A stretch of DNA of 64,000 bases, from contig CBDFKU010000016.1 in NCBI GenBank assembly GCA_965248975.1, forward strand, positions 64,764 to 128,763. Direction: 5' to 3'. Under the pieces are notes generated by a model. It did no database searches. It saw nothing but the letters and a program-made list of their open reading frames with translations, and had not been told where the DNA came from. Below, one piece after another: positions 22,477 to 36,445 of this stretch. Position numbers and translations under genes: made by a program. Each line of letters starts with the position of its first letter. Within the stretch, counting starts at the first letter, position 1. Source of the stretch: Dehalococcoidia bacterium. GTDB lineage: Bacteria; Chloroflexota; Dehalococcoidia; Lucifugimonadales; JAGWBF01.

Positions 22477-22606
22477 TTGAGAGATTATAGCAGAATGCGC
22501 AAACGACAAACCTTCCAAGCATGTCCTCTCCCGGCCTTGTCACCACAATGGCCAACCAAGTATGATGGGTTCGCCAAAGGCACGTTCCGAGGGAGGCGAA
22601 GGTTCT

Positions 22607-24250
22607 ATGGGGCGCTATTGTGCTCTAGGCATAATCATCTTGGCAGCGGTCGTCCTTTCCGCATGCGGTGGCGGTGGCGGAACTTCGCCCACGTCTACCC
22701 CCACGTTCACTCCGGAGCCGACCCCTGAACCCACATCTACTACAACCCTGGAGCCCACCATCACCCCCGGTCCCACCTCCACTTCGGCACCCACTTCCAC
22801 GCCTCCTCCAGCTCCGACTTCGACACCTACGGCCACTTCTACTCCGGCACCCCAGGCCACCGCCACTCCGGAGCCGGTCGAGCCGACCCCCACCTCGGCA
22901 CCGACAGCTATAGCGACGCCGACCCCTCTGCCAACTCCGACTCTCACTCCGGCCCCAACACCGACCCCATCGCCTACGCAGGTACCTACGCCCATGCCCA
23001 CATCTATACCCACCCCGACGCCGGTGCCTCCCCGCGTCATTGTCCGCGAAGACCTGCCGGGGATGGTCCTGGCACAGGCAGACGTCGACGCCGAGATACA
23101 GGGCCTTCCCCTGGATGTCGCGGAAAGCGGCTACCAGGATAACGACGGCGCAGCAAGTGGGACCGTCGACCCCAGTGACACCGCCTCGGACCTGACGGCC
23201 CTGGGGCGTCTGGACGGCTACGGCCACCAGTTCCTGGACTTGTTGGTGCTGTTGCAGGGCGACCCCGCTGCGGGCGGCATCTTCAACGTATCGGCCTCCG
23301 TGGACACTTTCGACAGCCCCGAGGGTGCGGCGGCCTTCATCCAAGACCAGATCGAGGATTTTCGCCGTTTACAGAGTAGCGAAATATCCGAAGGATTCAC
23401 CTTGACCAGACTTCAGGAGTCGACGCCACCGAATGTCGGAGAAGATGCCATTGCTGGCGTCCTCCTCATATCCGTGGACGTGCCCGGCCTGAAGGCAGAC
23501 ACGTCCAACACCTTCGTCTCCTGGCGCAGGGACAACGTCGTGGCGACCCTCACGGTAGCTGCGGTGGGCGATGGAGGGAAAGGCGCCGTAGCGTCGCGCC
23601 TGGCCCTTCGCATGGACCAGAGGATAGACGGCGTGCTTGCCGGGGATATCGTGGCGACTCCCGTTCCATCTGGACCGGGCCCCTCAGGCACCGCCGAGGA
23701 ACGGGCCCGTGGCCAGGGTTACGACCTTCCCGCTATGCTCCACACCATTGCCGACCTGCCTGAAGGGGTGGCTCTGGGGGCTGAAGGTTTCATCGAGAAC
23801 TCGGACGGGATAAGCGCCTACCAGCGCTCCTTCGAGCCGGCCGAGGGACAGTTCATGGAGCTGGCATCCTCCAGGGCCATCGGAATAGGGGAGACGGTCA
23901 CCCTCCACATCAGCCCACTGGATGCACAGGCTCCCCTGCTGCTGATGAGGAACGCCGATCCAGAGGACATACGGAACCTGGCCGTGCAAGCACTGGCAGG
24001 TTCCGAGTTTTCGGTGACGAACCTGACGGTAGCCCCGCTGCCAGTCTTCCAGGTTGGGGACGTCACCGTGGCCTTCCTGATGAAGTTCGACACGGAGTTC
24101 GGCCCCTTCGAGGGACACCTGTTCTTCTTCGCTCAGGGCCGTCTCGCCGTGGACGTGGTTATCACGGGTGTGGCCGACAGGATTGCCCTCTTCGATACCT
24201 TGAACCTGGCCCAGTTCATCAGCGGCAAGATCCCCGGAAACTCGCCCTGA
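22607..24250 (+). CDS. lipoprotein with long Pro/Thr-rich linker, C-terminal domain of unknown function
   Basis: The ORF opens at 22562. ATG 22607 follows GGGAGG and gives 'MGRYCALGIIILAAVVLSACGGGGG' (lipobox L-S-A-C). A P/T/S/A low-complexity stretch of ~130 aa follows (~22680-23030), then a ~400-aa domain I cannot assign. Confidence 0.6.
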   Translation: MGRYCALGIIILAAVVLSACGGGGGTSPTSTPTFTPEPTPEPTSTTTLEPTITPGPTSTSAPTSTPPPAPTSTPTATSTPAPQATATPEPVEPTPTSAPTAIATPTPLPTPTLTPAPTPTPSPTQVPTPMPTSIPTPTPVPPRVIVREDLPGMVLAQADVDAEIQGLPLDVAESGYQDNDGAASGTVDPSDTASDLTALGRLDGYGHQFLDLLVLLQGDPAAGGIFNVSASVDTFDSPEGAAAFIQDQIEDFRRLQSSEISEGFTLTRLQESTPPNVGEDAIAGVLLISVDVPGLKADTSNTFVSWRRDNVVATLTVAAVGDGGKGAVASRLALRMDQRIDGVLAGDIVATPVPSGPGPSGTAEERARGQGYDLPAMLHTIADLPEGVALGAEGFIENSDGISAYQRSFEPAEGQFMELASSRAIGIGETVTLHISPLDAQAPLLLMRNADPEDIRNLAVQALAGSEFSVTNLTVAPLPVFQVGDVTVAFLMKFDTEFGPFEGHLFFFAQGRLAVDVVITGVADRIALFDTLNLAQFISGKIPGNSP

Positions 24251-27539: not shown

Positions 27540-28691
27540 TTACCGCAGGTTCCGAAAAAAGCGGCGTATCTCCCCCGCCAACAGCTCCGGCTCCTCCAGG
27601 GAGTTGAAGTGGCCGCCCCGGGGCATCTCCGCGAACTGCTGCAGGTTCTGGGTACGCGCGGCGAACTCCTCGGGTGGGTGGAACAGCTCCCTCGGGAAAA
27701 TAGCCACTGCACAGGGCACTTGGATCTTATCTCCCTCCTCGAGGTACCAGGGAGCCTTGCGGGACTCGTAGTATAGCCGGCAGGAGGAGCCGATGGACTG
27801 GGTCACCCAGTAAACCATCACGTTGGTCAGCAGCTCGTCCTTGGTGAAGCGCTTCTCCACGTCGCCGTCACAGTCGCTCCAGGATCGCCACTTCTCCACG
27901 ATCCAGGCGCACAGGCCAGCGGGGGAGTCGTTGAGGCCGTAGGAGAGGGTCTGGGGCTTGGTCCCCTGGATGTGGTTGTAGCCGCCCTCGGCATCCTGCC
28001 AGGCGTCCCTCTCCTCGTTGTAGGCCACCTCCCTTTCGGACAGCTCCTTTGAACCCGGCCCCACGTAGGGGCGGCCGCCACCCACCAGCGTGGTGTGGAT
28101 GCCCACCACGTGATCCGGATGGTCGAATCCCAGCCGTGCCGTCACGCTGGCGCCCCAGTCTCCGCCCTGGGCAGCGTAGCGCTGATAGCCCAGACCCTCG
28201 GTCATCAGCACGTGCCACAGGTCGGCTATGCGCCAGTACTGCATGCCCGGCTCGTGGGCCGCGTCGGAGAAGCCGAAGCCCGGGCCTGCGGGAGCCACCA
28301 CGTCGAAGGAGTCCGCGGGGTCGCCTCCGTGGCCGGCCGGATCGGTTAGGAGGGGAATTATCTTGGACATCTCCCAGACCGACTTGGGCCAACCGTGGGT
28401 GATGACGATGGGCATCGGATTGGGTCCCTTTCCCCGCTCGTGGATGAAGTGGACACCGAGGCCGTCTACGTTGGCCTTGAACTGGCTGAAGGAGTTCAGG
28501 AACCGCTCCTGGGCCCGCCAATCGTAGCCGGTGCGCCAGTACTCCACCAGCTCCTTGATGTAAGACAGGTTGGAACCGTAGTCCCAGCCGGAGTCGGTGA
28601 TCTCGTCGGGCCAGCGGGTGCGGGCCAGGCGTTCCTGCAGGTCCGCCAGGACCTCGTCGGGGACGTTTACCTTGAAGGGCTGTATATCCAT
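27540..28691 (-). CDS. epoxide hydrolase (microsomal EH-like, N-terminal EHN domain), paralogue 1
   Basis: 'MDIQPFKVNVPDEVLADLQERLARTRWPDE' (EHN domain), oxyanion 'THGWPKS' (H-G-x-P), nucleophile 'AQGGDWGA'. Confidence 0.87.
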   Translation of the reverse strand: MDIQPFKVNVPDEVLADLQERLARTRWPDEITDSGWDYGSNLSYIKELVEYWRTGYDWRAQERFLNSFSQFKANVDGLGVHFIHERGKGPNPMPIVITHGWPKSVWEMSKIIPLLTDPAGHGGDPADSFDVVAPAGPGFGFSDAAHEPGMQYWRIADLWHVLMTEGLGYQRYAAQGGDWGASVTARLGFDHPDHVVGIHTTLVGGGRPYVGPGSKELSEREVAYNEERDAWQDAEGGYNHIQGTKPQTLSYGLNDSPAGLCAWIVEKWRSWSDCDGDVEKRFTKDELLTNVMVYWVTQSIGSSCRLYYESRKAPWYLEEGDKIQVPCAVAIFPRELFHPPEEFAARTQNLQQFAEMPRGGHFNSLEEPELLAGEIRRFFRNLR

Positions 28692-28720: not shown

Positions 28721-28765
28721 CCTTCTCCCATCGGGAGAGGAGCCAGGGGTGAGGGCTACCCCCTC
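28721..28765. repeat. related shorter hairpin repeat
   Basis: CC(T)TCTCCC-ATC-GGGAGAGG (28721-28740), then AGCCAGGGGT, then GAGGG-CTACC-CCCTC (28751-28765). The architecture and CCAGG(G/A) spacer match the larger repeat. Its 3' part overlaps the last codons of the next gene. Confidence 0.5.
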
Positions 28766-29898
28766 AAGGGCCGAAAGGCGGCCCGGATGTCCTCGGCCAG
28801 TAGCGCCGGCTCCTCCATTGCGGCAAAGTGGCCTCCCCGGGGCATCTCTGTCCAGCGCTGGATGTTGTGAGCTCTCTCGGCCCACTCCTTGGGCGGCCTG
28901 CTGGTCTCGTTGGGGAAGATGGCCACCGAAGTGGGCACGGTAATCCTCTCGCCCTCCTCCATCACCTTCCGGTTCTCATAGTAGAACCGGACCGATGAGC
29001 CGATGGTCTGGGTCACCCAGTAGATGGTGATGTTGGTAAGCATCTCGTCCTTGGAGAAATGGTCTTCCAGGTTGCCGTTGGGTATGGTCCAGGCCTTGAA
29101 CTTCTCCACGATCCAGGCACATAGGCCGGCGGGAGAGTCGTTGAGGCCGTAGGAGAGAGTCTGAGGTTTAGTCCCCTGGATGTGGCCGTAGCCTCCCTCG
29201 GCGTCCCGCCACCAATCCCGCCACTCCCAGTACTTCTCCTCGGCGTCGGTTATCGGACGCTCCCCCGGCCCGGGACGGGCGGGAGGCCCGCCAGCCATGT
29301 TGAGGTGGACGGCCATCACCTGCTCCGGGTAGGCCGCGCCCAGGCGGGAGGTCACCAACGCGCCCCAGTCTCCGCCCTGAGCCAGGAAGCGGGGATATCC
29401 CAGCCCATCCATCAGCTTCACCCACAGGTCCGCAACGGTCCGGAAGCTCATGCCTGGCTGCGAAGCCCGGTCGGAGAAGCCGTAGCCAGGCAGCGAGGGA
29501 ACCACCACGTCGAAAGAGTCGGCGGGGTCCGCGCCATGGGCCGCGGGATCGGTCAGCATGGGGATGATCTCCAGCATCTCGGAGAAGGAGCCGGGCCAGC
29601 CGTGGGTGACGATCAGCGGGAGCGGATCCGGCCCATGCCCGCGCTCGTGGATGAAGTGGATGCCCAGCCCGTCCACGCTGGCTCGGAAGTGGTGGAAGGC
29701 GTTGATGGCCCGCTCACGGGCCTGCCAGTCGAAAGTGGTGCGCCAGTACTCCGTCAGCTCTTTTACATAACTCATGTTGGCGCCATAATCCCAGCCCGAG
29801 TCGGTGATCTCGTCGGGCCAACGGGTGCGAACCAGGCGCTCCCGCAAGTCGTTGAGGACGTCTTCCGATACCTCTATTTTGAAGGGCTGTACATCCAT
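28756..29898 (-). CDS. epoxide hydrolase (microsomal EH-like), paralogue 2
   Basis: The ORF opens at 29997, but the family N-terminus 'MDVQPFKIEVSEDVLNDLRERLVRTRWPDE' starts at ATG 29898. 'THGWPGS' and 'AQGGDWGA' are present. Confidence 0.87.
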   Translation of the reverse strand: MDVQPFKIEVSEDVLNDLRERLVRTRWPDEITDSGWDYGANMSYVKELTEYWRTTFDWQARERAINAFHHFRASVDGLGIHFIHERGHGPDPLPLIVTHGWPGSFSEMLEIIPMLTDPAAHGADPADSFDVVVPSLPGYGFSDRASQPGMSFRTVADLWVKLMDGLGYPRFLAQGGDWGALVTSRLGAAYPEQVMAVHLNMAGGPPARPGPGERPITDAEEKYWEWRDWWRDAEGGYGHIQGTKPQTLSYGLNDSPAGLCAWIVEKFKAWTIPNGNLEDHFSKDEMLTNITIYWVTQTIGSSVRFYYENRKVMEEGERITVPTSVAIFPNETSRPPKEWAERAHNIQRWTEMPRGGHFAAMEEPALLAEDIRAAFRPLRG

Positions 29899-30010
29899 GC
29901 CGGGCCTCCTGGTGGAGCGTTCCTTCGGCGACGGCAATAGTTTAGCACAGCGAAAACCCGACGGATACCTGCCCCGGAGGCACAGCCAGCTCCCCACGAG
30001 TCCAGGTTCG

Positions 30011-30039
30011 TTGACACCCCTTGGGGTAGCTGATACGAT
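30011..30039 (+). promoter_or_regulatory. putative sigma70-type promoter
   Basis: TTGACA (30011-30016), 17-nt spacer, TACGAT (30034-30039), 27 nt upstream of ATG 30067. AGGAGG at 30055-30060. Confidence 0.4.
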
Positions 30040-30066
30040 TTAGGCAGAAGCCACAGGAGGTAAGGA

Positions 30067-31473
30067 ATGGTCGGCGTCAAGGCCTTCGGAGCTCATATCC
30101 CTCTCTACCGGCTGGGGAAGGAAACGTTGGGATGGGGGTCGTCGGGGGAGAAGGCCGTGGCCAACTTCGACGAGGACAGCGTCACCATGGCGGTGGCCGC
30201 TGGGACGGAATGCCTCAAAGGCCTCGACAGGCAGCAGGTGGACGGGCTCCTGTTCGCCACAACCACGCCTCCCTACGCCGAGAAACAGTGCGCCTCCATA
30301 ATAGCCACGGCCCTGGACCTGCGCCGGGACATCTTCACTGCAGACGTCACGGGAGTGCTGCGGGCCGGCACCACCGCCCTCAAGATGGCCATGGACTCCG
30401 TAAACGCCGGATCGGCGGGCCAGGTCCTCGTCATTGCCTCCGACGCCCGCCTGGCTACGCCGCGAGGCGACATGGAGCGCAACCTGGGGGACGGCGCGGC
30501 CGCGTTGCTGCTGGCCAAAGACGGTGTGGCCGCGGCCATAGAGGGGACCCATTTCATCAGCGAGAACATGCTGGATATGTGGCGCTCCCAGGGCGATCCC
30601 TTCATACGCTCCTGGGAGGACCGCTTCACTACAGAGGAGGGCCTGGAGCGCATCCTCCCCGACGCCGTGGGGGGCTTCATGGAAAAGCATAGCCTGACCC
30701 CCAGCGACGTTACCAAGGTAGCCCTCTACGCTCCCGACGCCCGGCGCCACTCTCAGTTAGGCCGCCGCATGGGGTTCTCCCCCGAACAGATCCAGGACCC
30801 CCTGTTCGGGACGGTAGGCAACACCGGGGCCGCCTACCCTCTGACCCTGCTCATTGGCGCATTGGAAGAGGCCAAGGACGGCGATCTGCTGCTCACCGTA
30901 AGCTATGGCGACGGCAGCGACATCCTGTCCTTCCGGGTAAACTCCGGCATCGAAGCTCTCAAGAACGGGCACGGCATCAAGGAGCAGGTCGAGGCCAAAA
31001 GAGTGCTGCCCAGCTACGAGACTTATGCCCGCTGGCGGGATGTGTGGACCTCGGACGCGGCGGCGAGGCGGCCCGCCCCCGCCGTGCCATCAGTTACCGC
31101 TCTATGGCGGGAGTCGGACCAGATCATTCGCCTGTACGGCGCGAAGTGCGACCAGTGCGGCTACGTCCAGTATCCACCCCAGAGAGTCTGCACCGAGTGC
31201 CAGTCCAAGGACACATCCCAGCCAGTGCGCCTGTCAGACAAGAAGGGAACGGTATTCACCTACTCGATGGACTATCTGGCCGGCACCACGGACAGCCCGC
31301 TGGTGGTCACAGTGGTGAACTTCGACGAGGGCGGCCGAATGCTGTGTATGATGACCGATCGGGAGCTGGACGAGGTACACGTGGGGATGCCGGTGGAGAT
31401 GAGCTTCCGGAAGCTGCGGGTGGTCAACGGGATCCACAACTACTTCTGGAAGTCGGTGCCAGCGCGGGGCTGA
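30067..31473 (+). CDS. HMG-CoA synthase-like (thiolase fold) domain fused to DUF35 Zn-ribbon/OB-fold domain
   Basis: The N-terminus 'MVGVKAFGAHIPLYRL...NFDEDSVTMAVAAG' and 'VSYGDGSD' follow the archaeal-type HMGCS layout. The C-terminus has the Zn-ribbon 'CDQCGYVQYPPQRVCTECQS' and an OB segment typical of DUF35. Expected catalytic positions look substituted (see findings). Confidence 0.75.
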   Translation: MVGVKAFGAHIPLYRLGKETLGWGSSGEKAVANFDEDSVTMAVAAGTECLKGLDRQQVDGLLFATTTPPYAEKQCASIIATALDLRRDIFTADVTGVLRAGTTALKMAMDSVNAGSAGQVLVIASDARLATPRGDMERNLGDGAAALLLAKDGVAAAIEGTHFISENMLDMWRSQGDPFIRSWEDRFTTEEGLERILPDAVGGFMEKHSLTPSDVTKVALYAPDARRHSQLGRRMGFSPEQIQDPLFGTVGNTGAAYPLTLLIGALEEAKDGDLLLTVSYGDGSDILSFRVNSGIEALKNGHGIKEQVEAKRVLPSYETYARWRDVWTSDAAARRPAPAVPSVTALWRESDQIIRLYGAKCDQCGYVQYPPQRVCTECQSKDTSQPVRLSDKKGTVFTYSMDYLAGTTDSPLVVTVVNFDEGGRMLCMMTDRELDEVHVGMPVEMSFRKLRVVNGIHNYFWKSVPARG

Positions 31474-31518
31474 AGGACCCATGCTACACGACGTGCTTGA
31501 CATAACGAGGAGGGTACA

Positions 31519-32691
31519 ATGCAGGGAATAAAGGACCGGGTGGCGATCATCGGGATGGGCTGCACCAAGTTCGGGGAGCGATGGGACGCTGGCGCCGCCG
31601 ACCTCATGGTAGAGGCGGCCTACGAGGCCTACGAGGACGCTGGGGTGGACTCCAAGGACATCCAGGCGGCCTGGCTGGGCACGGTGCAGACCTTCAGGAC
31701 CGGACAGCCCCTGGCCCAAGCCCTCAAGCTGGACTACGTGCCCATCACCCGCGTGGAGAACGCCTGCGCCACCGCCACAGACGCCTTCCGCAACGCCAGC
31801 TACGCGGTAGCGGCGGGCATCTACGACATCGTGCTGGCAGTGGGAGTGGAGAAGCTGAAAGACTCGGGCTTCTCCGGGCTGGCCCTATCCGAAGGCGTGG
31901 GCAGCGAGGTGACCCCTCCTTCTCCCCCACCCTCCCAGTTCGCCATGGCTGCGACCCGCTACTTCCATCACCATGGGATACCCTATGAGGAAGGCAAACG
32001 CGTCCTGGCCCAGATAGCCTCCAAGAACCACCACAACGGCACGCTGAACCCCAAGGCCCACTTCCAGCGGGAAGTCAGCGTGGACCAGATCATGAACGCT
32101 CCGATGATCGCCTGGCCCCTGGGCCTGTACGACTGCTGCGGCGTCAGTGATGGCGCGGCGGCGGCGATCATCACCACGCCGGAGATCGCCAAGAGCTTCC
32201 GGCGGGACTACGTGCTGGTCAAGGGCCTGGGGTTGGCTGTCGGATCCTTCGGCCTGCTCAGGGACGACTGGGACTTCGTCCACTTCCCCGAGAACGTGCG
32301 GGCGGGACAGGCGGCCTACCAGGAGGCTGGAATCGAAAACCCCCGTGAAGAGATCGACATGGCCATCGTCCACGACTGCTTCACCATCACCGAGCTGATC
32401 ATCGCAGAGGACCTGGGCTTCAGCCCCAGGGGCAGGGCTCGGGAGGACGTCGAGAACGGCAGCTTCACCCTGGAGGGAGACCTTCCCATCAACACCGATG
32501 GCGGGCTGAAGTGCTTCGGCCACCCCATCGGGGCCAGCGGCATCCGCATGATCTACGAGGTATACAAGCAGCTCCAGGGGAAGGCAGGTCCCCGCCAACT
32601 CCAGAAGGCCGACCTGGGGCTGACCCACAACCTGGGAGGCCGCCCCGGCTCCTTCACCGCTTCGGTAGCGGTCTTCGGCGCCGCCGAGTAG
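31519..32691 (+). CDS. thiolase (SCP-x/archaeal-type acetyl-CoA acetyltransferase-like)
   Basis: 390-aa ORF with 'RVAIIGMGCTKFGE', nucleophile context 'VENACATATDAF', 'VHDCFT' and 'FGHPIGASGIRM'. Confidence 0.85.
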   Translation: MQGIKDRVAIIGMGCTKFGERWDAGAADLMVEAAYEAYEDAGVDSKDIQAAWLGTVQTFRTGQPLAQALKLDYVPITRVENACATATDAFRNASYAVAAGIYDIVLAVGVEKLKDSGFSGLALSEGVGSEVTPPSPPPSQFAMAATRYFHHHGIPYEEGKRVLAQIASKNHHNGTLNPKAHFQREVSVDQIMNAPMIAWPLGLYDCCGVSDGAAAAIITTPEIAKSFRRDYVLVKGLGLAVGSFGLLRDDWDFVHFPENVRAGQAAYQEAGIENPREEIDMAIVHDCFTITELIIAEDLGFSPRGRAREDVENGSFTLEGDLPINTDGGLKCFGHPIGASGIRMIYEVYKQLQGKAGPRQLQKADLGLTHNLGGRPGSFTASVAVFGAAE

Positions 32692-32709
32692 TGAGGGAGG
32701 ACTACTACC

Positions 32710-32946
32710 GTGGGTGCGCGGTGCTTTCAAGTGTCGCTGGAGTGGGACGCCGAAGATTGTGTTTGGGTTACTTACGTGCCAGTGCTCAACTACCTCTCTA
32801 CCTTCGGAGAGACCCGAGAAGAGGCACTTTCCAATACAGAGGAGGCTGTCATCGGCTACCTGGAGGCTGCAGCTCGGGAGAGGCTGCCCGTTCCCGCCGG
32901 AAACACCGCAGCCGAACTGGTCTCGATTGAGATTATGGTCCCGTGA
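32710..32946 (+). CDS. hicB: type II antitoxin, HicB family
   Basis: 78-aa ORF reading 'FQVSLEWDAEDCVWVTYVPVLNYLSTFGETREEALSNTEEAVIGYLEAA', the HicB/UPF0150 RNase-H-like fold pattern. Its stop overlaps the hicA GTG (GTGA at 32943-32946). Confidence 0.7.
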   Translation: MGARCFQVSLEWDAEDCVWVTYVPVLNYLSTFGETREEALSNTEEAVIGYLEAAARERLPVPAGNTAAELVSIEIMVP

Positions 32947-33177
32947 CACGATTGCCGCGGGTGAGCGGCAGGGACATGCCGCGAGCCTCGCGGCAAGGCG
33001 GGTTTCGCCTATCCCACGTTCGTGGCAGTCATCATTATCTGCGGAAGCCCTGAGCCCCCGGCTTGGTTGTGGGTACCGGTCCACGGCAATCGAAGTCTAC
33101 CGGTCGGTACCATTCGCTCCATTCTGCGGCAGGCTGAGCTGACTCCCGAGGGACTCGTTAGCTTGCCAAGGGTTTGA
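32943..33177 (+). pseudogene. hicA: type II toxin HicA, disrupted by a frameshift
   Basis: From GTG 32943, frame 0 reads 'VTRLPRVSGRDMPRASRQGGFRLSHVRGSHHYLRKP*'. The rest of a HicA, 'VPVHGNRSLPVGTIRSILRQAELTPEGLVSLPRV*', continues in the +1 frame to TGA 33175-33177. The shift lies between ~33036 and 33075, near a C5 run. Confidence 0.65.
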
Positions 33178-33365
33178 GAAGTTCCCTTCAAGGCGTTCAT
33201 GCCGTGTGGTCCGGACAGCGCAGGGTTCGGGGCCATGCAACCGGATCCCTTGAACTAACGTTTCTCCGGTCAACAATGTTATGTCAACGCCCTGGTATGA
33301 TTTCTTTAACATAACATATATTGTGCGAACCAATGGGTCGGGGAGAACCCGGGGACTGACTCACC

Positions 33366-34640
33366 CTATCTTCGGGCCGCGATCGACGGACTCACCACTC
33401 CGAGCTTCTCCAGTAGCTGTCCCGTCTCCTCCAGCAGGTCTTTCAGGTTCCAGCCCAGAGCCGCGGAGACCAGAACGCCAGGATGCTGGGAGAGTATGGG
33501 CAACTCGTCCACGTGTTCCCCATTGTCACGAGGTACCACCAGGTCCATCTTGTTCACCACCATGAGCTTCGGTTTGTCTCCCAGCCCCAGCTCGTCCAGG
33601 GTTTTACCCACCACCTCCGTCTGCTCCGGCGCCTTGGGATGAGTGATGTCGATGACATGGAGGAGAAGGTCGGTTTGCTGAAGCTCTTCCAGGGTCGCCC
33701 TGAAAGCGTCGACCACGGTGGGAGGCAGCTTGTGAATGAACCCCACGGTGTCCGTGAGGAGCACCTGGCCCCCGGCCGGCAGCCAGATGCGCCGGGTCAC
33801 CGGGTCGAGAGTGGAGAAGGGCTGATTCTGGACGGCGACTCCGGCTTCGCTCAGGGCGTTGAACAAGGTGCTTTTGCCAGCGTTGGTGTAGCCGACCAAG
33901 GATACCACCGGGAGCCGGGCCTGCTTGCGCCGGCTCATATAGGACACCCTTCGCTGACTGACCTGCTTGAGCTCGGCCTCCAGCCTCTGGATTCTTTTGC
34001 GGATGAGACGCCGGTCCGTTTCCAGCTGGGTCTCGCCGGGACCCCTGGTGCCTATCCCTCCGCCAAGACGCTCCAGATGGGACCACTGGCCTACCAGCCG
34101 TGGCAGCAGGTACTGATGCTGGGCCAGCTCCACCTGCAACTGGCCCTCGCGGGTCCGGGCATTGCGGGAGAAGATGTCCAGGATCAGGGCCGTCCTGTCG
34201 ATGATTTTAACTTCCAGAACGTTTTCCAGGTTCTTTTGCTGGGTGGGCGTTAGCTCGTCGTCGAAGATGATCAGGCTGCACTGGGTCTCGGCCTGGAGGC
34301 GCTTGAGCTCGTCCAGCTTTCCGGTTCCCAGATAGTGGTTGCTGTACTTCTCCAGACGTTGCCCGACGGTGGAGACCACCTCGGCTCCGGCGGCGCCTGC
34401 CAGGAGCGCCAACTCTTCCAGGGACTCCTCCAGGCTCCACAGAGGGTCCTTGTCTTTGAGGGCAACCCCAACCAGAAGGGCCCTTTCGGCGGATGGACCG
34501 GTCCTTATCTGTGCTTTGGGTATGGGCGGCCTCCTAGCTTCCCTGGGGAGCGGGGATGGTCCAGGACGCCAGCCTCTCGACGCCCGTGTCCACCCGCTCG
34601 TCAGGGGTCGTGAGGGAGAAGCGTATGTATCCCTCGCCAT
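33366..34640 (-). CDS. hflX: GTPase HflX
   Basis: 'ALLVGV...', '[18 protein letters not shown]', '[16 protein letters not shown]', G1 '[16 protein letters not shown]', 'LTDTVGF', 'NKMD'. The only ATG (34640) overlaps dapL by 107 nt, so the true start is probably downstream and non-canonical. Confidence 0.85.
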
Positions 34641-35746: not shown

Positions 35747-36445
35747 TTATAGATAACCTTCAGGGGTCAGCAGTTCAAGAGTTGGATCGAGTTCTTTGTA
35801 GGGCAACGTATCAAGACGATTCCAGTTTTCGTCTCCTTTTTCCAACCGTCTGCTTACTTCTTCTAGTGGTACAATCCAGACGCTATCCAAATTTTCGAAA
35901 TATTGCTGAAGAAATTTGTTGGAACCACTGTATTCAGGTAGATCCGCGATCCATTCTTTTAGTTCTTCAGCTTCATCCACCGTGTTAACAAGGACACGTG
36001 GCAATGAGAGAACTGGCTTGTCAGAGTTTGGGTAGGTGGCGGACGGCAATAAAAGAGGAACTCCCTCCGCTGGGGGGATCCCGAGAACAAGACATTGGTT
36101 AGACTCAGGCTTGGCACGCCATTCCCGTTCATGGGTCCAGTCAACCGGGTAGCGGAAAGTCTCGTGTGGTATGGGCGCGTAGCGCACCCATAGATATTTA
36201 CGTTCATCAGGAAGGCTATTCAGCAGACTTTCGTCTCCATAAATGACCGGCCTGCCTCCATATTCATAAAGGTGCCATTTGTGCATCACTACGCCGTACG
36301 GGTGGTAACGACCAGACAATACTGCACAAGACTTGATGAACGCATCTAGCGGCTGTTCTGTAAAACAAACAGCTGGGCGCGGACCCTTTATCGTATCTTC
36401 TTGTCCACCGACGGTAAACCGGGCCTTCGGTGCAAAGGTAGGCAT
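35747..36445 (-). CDS. AbiGi-like (abortive-infection-type) protein, low-GC insert
   Basis: 232 aa from ATG 36445. 'PAVCFTEQPL', 'YGVVMHKWHLYEYGGRPVIY' and 'DWTHEREWR' match my recollection of AbiGi-family motifs. The frame stays open a further 51 codons upstream (to 36598), encoding 'DYVIHWTRGKVIDKKYVKPFDILKSILSSGYL', with no ATG/GTG/TTG. The gene is markedly AT-richer than its flanks. Confidence 0.5.
   Translation of the reverse strand: MPTFAPKARFTVGGQEDTIKGPRPAVCFTEQPLDAFIKSCAVLSGRYHPYGVVMHKWHLYEYGGRPVIYGDESLLNSLPDERKYLWVRYAPIPHETFRYPVDWTHEREWRAKPESNQCLVLGIPPAEGVPLLLPSATYPNSDKPVLSLPRVLVNTVDEAEELKEWIADLPEYSGSNKFLQQYFENLDSVWIVPLEEVSRRLEKGDENWNRLDTLPYKELDPTLELLTPEGYL

Follow-up and report, generated by a model that had tools for sequence, protein, structure and literature searches.

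An HMG-CoA-synthase-like/DUF35 fusion lacking catalytic Glu, Cys and His is paired with an apparently intact thiolase in a Dehalococcoidia genome and is a probable non-catalytic scaffold

What might a protein resembling 3-hydroxy-3-methylglutaryl-CoA synthase (HMGS) do when the residues required for catalysis are missing and a thiolase gene stands directly behind it? This question is raised by two neighboring genes in a 64,000-nucleotide (nt) stretch of a Dehalococcoidia genome (assembly GCA_965248975.1, contig CBDFKU010000016.1, positions 64,764 to 128,763 of the forward strand), hereafter called the window. The first gene encodes a 468-amino-acid (aa) protein in which an HMGS-like domain is joined to a DUF35 module (the fusion), and the second encodes a thiolase. 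We consider it probable, at roughly three chances in four, that the products of the two genes assemble into a heteromeric thiolase complex in which the dead fusion is a non-catalytic scaffold for a thiolytic reaction; our confidence in any specific substrate is lower.

The catalytic tetrad E82/C114/H238/N270 of the archaeal HMGS from the M. thermolithotrophicus complex (6ESQ chain I) was used as the reference, these residues being named as the archaeal tetrad in PMC12960953 and PMC6392133. Three alignments (phmmer against 6esq_I, MAFFT, and MAFFT L-INS-i with controls) agreed in placing T66, L98, Y221 and N252 of the fusion at these positions. Three of the four residues, namely the Glu that acts as general base, the Cys nucleophile and the His, are lost, and only the fourth, N252, is retained. 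The HMGS contexts GSESHPY, FACKAGT and FHQPN are replaced by ATTTPPY, GVLRAGT and LYAPDA. As positive controls, four unfused HMGS genes of ~350 aa from other Chloroflexota, which reside in archaeal-style HMGS-thiolase(-DUF35) operons, were carried through the same alignment and displayed an intact E-C-H-N (motifs GSESHPY, EFACKAGT, VFHQPN and GN[ST]Y). An initial annotation of the window had held that Glu, Cys and His all appear to be missing and had proposed an alignment to characterized HMGS as a check; that alignment confirmed the substitutions and placed none of the three residues at a catalytic position. To this we add the retention of N252 and the survival of His at position 221 in a minority of homologues.

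Among 121 close homologues (≥67% identical), the E82 column holds Thr and the C114 column Leu in every sequence, while the H238 column holds Tyr in 101 and His in 20, and the N270 column Asn in 119 and Asp in two. Neither Glu nor Cys occurs at the first two columns in any of 150 distant cluster representatives (32-54% identity), where Thr and Leu predominate and the third and fourth columns vary freely. PhlA, a dead HMGS-like protein discussed below, reads C/G/Q/D at the four columns. NCBIfam HMGS models all scored the fusion below their cut-offs, with 204.5 versus 244 bits for NF003274, 140 versus 353 bits for TIGR00748 and 63 versus 360 bits for TIGR01835. The sequence thus indicates that the fusion cannot be an HMG-CoA synthase (EC 2.3.3.10). 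No second HMGS-like gene was found in the 92%-complete assembly (3.1 Mb), nor was HMG-CoA reductase (PF00368), which was detected in control genomes; without the reductase, an HMGS would have no mevalonate pathway to supply.

Loss of the catalytic residues has not been accompanied by decay of the domain. Mean identity across 58 orthologue pairs was 84% for the thiolase, 75% for the DUF35 module, 74% for the linker between the two domains and 66% for the HMGS-like domain, the last being the fastest-evolving part of the pair, yet clearly under constraint; conservation at this level argues for selection. A decaying pseudogene or relic domain was rejected in view of the open reading frame (ORF), this conservation, the invariant Thr and Leu, and the very large family to which the protein belongs.

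The domain architecture was established from Pfam and Protein Data Bank (PDB) matches. ACP_syn_III and ACP_syn_III_C, which represent a FabH/HMGS-type thiolase fold, match at residues 93-285, whereas zf-ChsH2 (354-382; 1e-8) and OB_ChsH2_C (387-448; 7e-12), both above cut-offs, together form the DUF35 module. Sequence matches in the PDB (phmmer) are to PhlA and HMGS over residues 2-320 and to DUF35 proteins over 344-466. A four-Cys rubredoxin-like ribbon followed by an OB fold (PF12172 and PF01796), the arrangement by which DUF35 is recognized, is present, its zinc-ribbon cysteines being C361, C364, C375 and C378; all four were found in 137 of the 150 distant representatives. The DUF35 part matches its counterpart in the archaeal complex, 6esq_E, at 2e-16, and an AlphaFold2 (AF2) model places beta strands across residues 357-465. 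An HMGS-like domain and DUF35 accordingly share one polypeptide, as the initial annotation had held, and the motifs that it had quoted all lie where it had put them (TTTPPY at residue 65, GVLRAGT at 96, LYAPDA at 220, CDQCG at 361 and CTEC at 375).

Foldseek searches with the AF2 model (mean predicted local distance difference test, pLDDT, 71; predicted TM score, pTM, 0.66) gave PhlA homologues as the best PDB matches (9SKH, 5MG5 and 5M3K; E 1e-26 to 4e-24), together with the HMGS of the archaeal complex (6ET9/6ESQ; E 3e-24, target TM score 0.80 for 6et9_I) and MucA (9VBT/9VBO; E 3e-21). Both sequence and fold thus point to the three known thiolase/HMGS-like/DUF35 complexes, whose HMGS-like and DUF35 subunits are the nearest solved structures. 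The linker is predicted to be disordered in the isolated chain (pLDDT <50 over residues 322-354) and is more conserved than the HMGS-like domain, with W323, R324, W327, R334, R335, P336, W347, R348 and E349 invariant. The N-terminal tail of PhlB is buried and touches both PhlA and PhlC (PMC6392133), and by analogy we infer that the linker is the equivalent of this tail and would fold upon thiolase binding.

The partner retains what the fusion has lost. It scored 579 bits against the NCBIfam model for acetyl-CoA acetyltransferase (ACAT; NF004810, cut-off 403) and carries ENACATAT at residue 80 and VHDCFT at residue 284, so that Cys83, H285-D-C-F (285-288) and G-H335-P are intact; C83, H285 of the HDxF motif and H335 of the GHx motif align with archaeal C85, H284 and H336. 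These Cys, HDxF and GHx motifs are kept in every Dehalococcoidia orthologue that covers the respective position (58 or 59 sequences). Among solved structures, the archaeal acetoacetyl-CoA thiolase 6esq_A is the nearest (5.5e-61), followed by BbsB (1.4e-47), whereas PhlC matches at just 1.7e-23. With the nucleophilic Cys and two catalytic His present, the protein is predicted to be an intact thiolase of the archaeal/SCP-x type.

The two genes are co-oriented and separated by 45 nt from the fusion stop codon to the thiolase ORF, as originally described. The pairing was followed through 80 further loci related at 63-81% identity, drawn from other Chloroflexota as well as from Dehalococcoidia and SAR202. 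Wherever the DNA beyond the fusion was long enough to tell, which was the case at 77 loci, the fusion was directly followed by the thiolase on the same strand, usually after a gap of 33-127 nt. Genes flanking the pair vary between loci and are mostly housekeeping genes. The window and the 80 loci contained no polyketide synthase (PKS) or nonribosomal peptide synthetase (NRPS) genes near the pair and no reductase or dehydratase gene linked to it.

A survey of how widespread the Cys-less fused form is, which had also been proposed at the outset, revealed a very large family. At 90% identity the matches listed form over 5,000 clusters (a lower bound), and a 50%-identity library yielded 613 representatives at E 1e-30 or better. 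Members were found in Chloroflexota, Deltaproteobacteria, Myxococcota, Binatia, Firmicutes and Pseudomonadales, including Pseudomaricurvus. In a maximum likelihood tree of the HMGS-like domains, which was unrooted and held few outgroup sequences, 69 fused proteins formed one split (100/100) apart from PhlA and true HMGS.

Some distant members have acquired further domains. A deltaproteobacterial protein of 911 aa (P0208) has the order HMGS-like-DUF35-SDR-SCP2, while the fusion is extended by an SDR domain in P0269 (800 aa) and by two SCP2 domains in P0197 (722 aa). The added domains are reminiscent of peroxisomal MFE-2 and SCPx, a likeness that points to beta-oxidation of lipophilic acyl-CoAs. 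No thiolase fused onto the same chain was seen in a check of long relatives. One further protein, P0188 (723 aa), has an HMGS-like N-terminus followed by ATP-grasp and molybdopterin-dinucleotide-binding domains in place of DUF35; it looks chimeric, perhaps through a faulty gene call or misassembly, and was left out of consideration.

Within an even sample of 301 Chloroflexota genomes, the fused form was present in ~22 and an unfused, intact HMGS in ~18. One genome (G252) carries five copies of the fusion. Two of these stand in tandem, each with its own thiolase (L091:2001-7363, contig C20), and their tetrads read TLYN and TTDN; such a gain of paralogues suggests substrate diversification among the copies. 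In Chloroflexota outside the Dehalococcoidia, HMGS-thiolase-DUF35 operons were observed at L087:3980-6593 (G048), L088:3980-6589 (G215) and L090:3983-6593 (G263), with an HMGS of 348-367 aa that has an intact E-C-H-N and a DUF35 protein of 131-179 aa; at L089:3926-6209 (G071), an HMGS in the same size range, likewise with E-C-H-N, and a thiolase are present and a DUF35 gene after the thiolase was not detected by the search. These archaeal-style operons presumably encode genuine bacterial mevalonate-pathway complexes. In the genome studied here there are seven thiolase genes, three of which adjoin stand-alone DUF35 genes (G000:C14:27855-29396, G000:C17:163406-164893 and G000:C10:11438-12960). 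A DUF35-thiolase partnership would on this count be used four times in the genome, once with an HMGS-like domain.

The closest described counterpart comes from Liao et al. (Nat Commun 2026; PMC12960953), who solved the structure of MucABC and mined 1,030 bacterial HMGS-ACAT-DUF35 loci, 1,001 of which had no PKS/NRPS neighbors. A representative from P. fluorescens, consisting of a fused HMGS-DUF35 without the tetrad and an ACAT with Cys, HDxF and GHx, was purified and assayed; the complex cleaved acetoacetyl-CoA and made neither HMG-CoA nor acetoacetyl-CoA, and the substitution H294Y in the HDxF motif of the ACAT nearly abolished cleavage (PMC12960953). The pair in the window shares with it the two-gene format, the HMGS-like and DUF35 parts on one polypeptide, the loss of HMGS catalytic residues, a thiolase with Cys, HDxF and GHx, and the absence of PKS/NRPS neighbors; the P. 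fluorescens pair is one of the ~1,000 'minimal' bacterial loci counted in that paper. It differs in its host (Chloroflexota, Dehalococcoidia, versus Pseudomonas fluorescens) and in retaining the tetrad Asn, whereas the whole tetrad is stated to be absent from the Pseudomonas protein. The order here is fusion then thiolase, whereas the paper writes ACAT/HMGS-DUF35, which is a name and not a confirmed gene order.

Dead HMGS-like subunits are also known from PhlACB (PpATase; 5M3K/5MG5) and MucABC (SmaATase; 9VBO/9VBT), each of which likewise combines such a subunit with DUF35 and a thiolase-fold catalytic subunit. In PhlA, described in 2018, the HMGS Cys is replaced by Gly115 and the Glu by Cys83, and the protein has no role in acyl transfer; catalysis in PhlACB depends on PhlC residues only, which make the sole substrate contacts, and PhlA and PhlB are needed just for assembly (PMC6392133). 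MucA, described in 2026, is a catalytically dead HMGS-like subunit too (PMC12960953). PhlA homologues are the best sequence and fold matches of the HMGS-like domain studied here. Both complexes consist of three separate polypeptides, however, whereas two of the modules are fused here; their thiolase subunits have lost HDxF and use non-CoA acceptors, whereas HDCF is kept here; and their genes lie in PKS/NRPS clusters, whereas the pair in the window does not. The archaeal thiolase/HMGS/DUF35 complex (6ESQ) is built from the same three modules, and the thiolase and DUF35 studied here are most similar to its subunits. Its HMGS is active and channels acetoacetyl-CoA into the mevalonate pathway, in contrast to the dead, DUF35-fused domain of a genome without HMG-CoA reductase. 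In BbsAB (benzoylsuccinyl-CoA thiolase), ChsH2-DUF35/Ltp2 and Sulfolobus KT/DUF35, DUF35 docks an HDxF thiolase of the SCP-x type, as is proposed here, but no HMGS-like domain is present. BbsA matches the DUF35 part of the fusion at 3.7e-7.

On the basis of these comparisons we propose the following mechanism. The thiolase would be the sole catalyst, with Cys83 as the acyl-accepting nucleophile that forms an acyl-enzyme intermediate, and with His285 (HDxF) and His335 (GHx) completing the active site and assisting Cys83. The fusion would be its obligatory non-catalytic partner, in which DUF35 and the linker are predicted to clamp the thiolase dimer onto the HMGS-like dimer, a task that falls to separate DUF35 proteins in the archaeal, PhlACB and MucABC complexes. 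The archaeal thiolase is insoluble by itself. The dead HMGS-like domain probably maintains the solubility and proper shape of the thiolase and would form one wall closing a shared chamber for CoA and substrate. Thiolysis, in which CoA cleaves a 3-ketoacyl-CoA, is the likeliest reaction, and acetoacetyl-CoA would be the minimal substrate, judging by the P. fluorescens counterpart. HMG-CoA would not be a product.

The proposal of the initial annotation that a pseudo-enzyme scaffold partners the thiolase is upheld in this model by the absent residues, the fixed Thr66 and Leu98, the intact and syntenic thiolase, and the nearest structures. Its further suggestion that such an arrangement had not been described fails in view of PhlA (PMC6392133) and of the fused HMGS-DUF35 and ACAT of P. 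fluorescens (PMC12960953). The design is already known from the 2026 work, and the pair in the window appears to be a well-conserved further example, with no new mechanistic category to be claimed. The survey instead sets one biochemical example within a large family that is under purifying selection. The P. fluorescens complex was termed an 'evolutionary intermediate' by its authors (PMC12960953), in contrast to the large, old family encountered here; that Thr and Leu are fixed, that synteny is strict and that paralogues and additional fusions have arisen all speak against such complexes being function-less evolutionary intermediates. Strict pairing, up to five copies per genome and the SDR/SCP2 fusions argue for a dedicated role in acyl-CoA metabolism of abundant uncultured marine and subsurface bacteria. 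The label 'HMG-CoA synthase' that databases attach to homologues would wrongly imply a mevalonate pathway in Dehalococcoidia and SAR202.

Several points weigh against the scaffold model. Mutual binding of the fusion and the thiolase, the direction of the reaction and its substrate are matters that we infer. Kinship with the P. fluorescens protein is drawn from shared architecture, motifs and the Pseudomonadales members of the family rather than from direct sequence comparison, and that protein was not found among the best 120 matches of a Gammaproteobacteria-seeded search. The AF2 model is of moderate quality, the housekeeping neighbors give no clue to substrate or reaction direction, and the retained N252 and fixed Thr66 and Leu98 mean that the old active-site pocket may still act, for example by binding a ligand.

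Four other explanations were ranked by likelihood and are taken here from the likeliest down. First, the complex could be biosynthetic, with the thiolase performing a Claisen condensation and the dead scaffold recruiting a reductase and a dehydratase that pull the unfavorable reaction forward, as in the carrier-protein-free fatty-acid synthase complex of S. acidocaldarius. There, DUF35 mediates the assembly of a thiolase, a ketoacyl-CoA reductase and a MaoC dehydratase (bioRxiv 10.1101/2024.07.05.601840). An SDR domain does occur on the same chain in distant relatives of the fusion, and the housekeeping surroundings fit a constitutive anabolic role equally with a catabolic one. We nevertheless judge this unlikely, given that the P. 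fluorescens complex gave no acetoacetyl-CoA from acetyl-CoA (PMC12960953) and that the loci surveyed hold neither a reductase nor a dehydratase gene in linkage with the pair. The SCP2 and MFE-2-type SDR fusions, moreover, are typical of beta-oxidation.

Second, the HMGS-like domain might not be dead, having instead acquired another catalytic or ligand-gating activity through Asn252, Tyr221, Thr66 and Leu98. This is more doubtful still. The invariance of Thr66 and Leu98, the presence of Asn252 in 119 of the 121 close homologues, the 66% conservation of the domain and the interfacial chamber that PhlACB and MucABC keep despite having lost the catalytic residues would all agree with a remodeled pocket, but Thr and Leu are neither nucleophiles nor general bases, positions 221 and 252 vary freely at a distance, which is unexpected for catalytic residues, and substrate contacts in PhlACB come from PhlC only (PMC6392133).

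Third, a CoA-independent Friedel-Crafts C-acyltransferase of the PhlACB/MucABC type, tailoring a secondary metabolite, was considered because the top PDB matches of the HMGS-like domain in sequence and fold are PhlA homologues. We rejected it as very improbable, since the HDxF motif lost in PhlC and MucB is intact here, the thiolase is far nearer to the archaeal ACAT than to PhlC, no PKS/NRPS gene lies near the pair, and the tree separates the fused family from PhlA.

Last and least credible, a genuine HMG-CoA synthase with its catalytic residues misplaced by alignment, as the E-values of NCBIfam HMGS models (2e-60 and 8e-41) and the naming of homologues in some databases might suggest, was rejected because the scores fall under curated cut-offs, three alignments with true-HMGS controls concur on the substitutions, the genome has no HMG-CoA reductase, and mutation of the E-C-H-N tetrad in a quadruple mutant inactivates the archaeal complex (PMC12960953).

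Returning to the scaffold model, we put forward a bolder extension of it tentatively, as possible rather than probable. The fused pseudo-enzymes may form an old class of wide distribution, its deep lineages in Chloroflexota, Proteobacteria, Myxococcota, Binatia and Firmicutes numbering in the hundreds, in which the remodeled pocket (Thr66, Leu98 and Asn252) and the linker gate or select the acyl-CoA of the thiolase. The fusion would then be the subunit that sets specificity in a distinct module of beta-oxidation (or its reverse), a module equipped in some lineages with a dehydrogenase and a lipid carrier.

The features of the locus are collected in Table 1. A strong Shine-Dalgarno sequence precedes each of the two genes, and the start codon of the fusion is backed by homologues of 466-470 aa that align from residue 1. 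The promoter proposed by the initial annotation is present as a consensus match only; it has 10 of 12 matches and is the sole such site in 29800-33400, and shuffled sequences gave a mean of 0.6.

Table 1. Coordinates of the fusion-thiolase locus, in positions of the window
Feature	Position	Strand	Basis
Fusion gene (P0001, 468 aa, HMGS-like/DUF35)	30067-31473	+	ORF, ATG start, AGGAGG ~8 nt upstream
Thiolase gene (P0002, 390 aa, archaeal/SCP-x type)	31519-32691	+	ORF, preceded by GAGGAGG
Candidate sigma-70-like promoter, TTGACA-17-TACGAT with TG extension	30011-30039	+	Upstream of fusion gene, consensus match only
HMGS-like thiolase-fold domain, ~residues 1-321 (T66/L98/Y221, N252 retained)	30067-31029	+	Alignments with positive controls, Foldseek
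Conserved linker, ~residues 322-355, predicted disordered in the lone chain	31030-31131	+	AF2 pLDDT, orthologue conservation
DUF35 module, four-Cys zinc ribbon and OB fold	31132-31470	+	Pfam, PDB sequence matches

Upstream of the pair in the window are two epoxide hydrolases and a cyclase, and downstream are HflX, DapL, DapF, MiaA, TIM and iPGM; neighbors in relatives include the CtpA protease, SmpB, MinC and MinD. These four and the HflX-DapL-DapF-MiaA group are the neighbors that recur, all of them housekeeping genes. Between the thiolase gene and hflX lies an ORF of 142 aa (32714-33142, + strand) with no Pfam match. Two other ORFs, at 22562-24250 (+ strand, 562 aa) and 35747-36445 (- strand, 232 aa), had no Pfam match at E ≤0.001, and the second of them sits between dapF and dapL. 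The epoxide hydrolases are tandem paralogues of the EHN type (27540-28691 and 28756-29997, both on the - strand) that are divergent from the fusion gene; such paralogues adjoin the pair in four of the 80 related loci and are probably unrelated to it.

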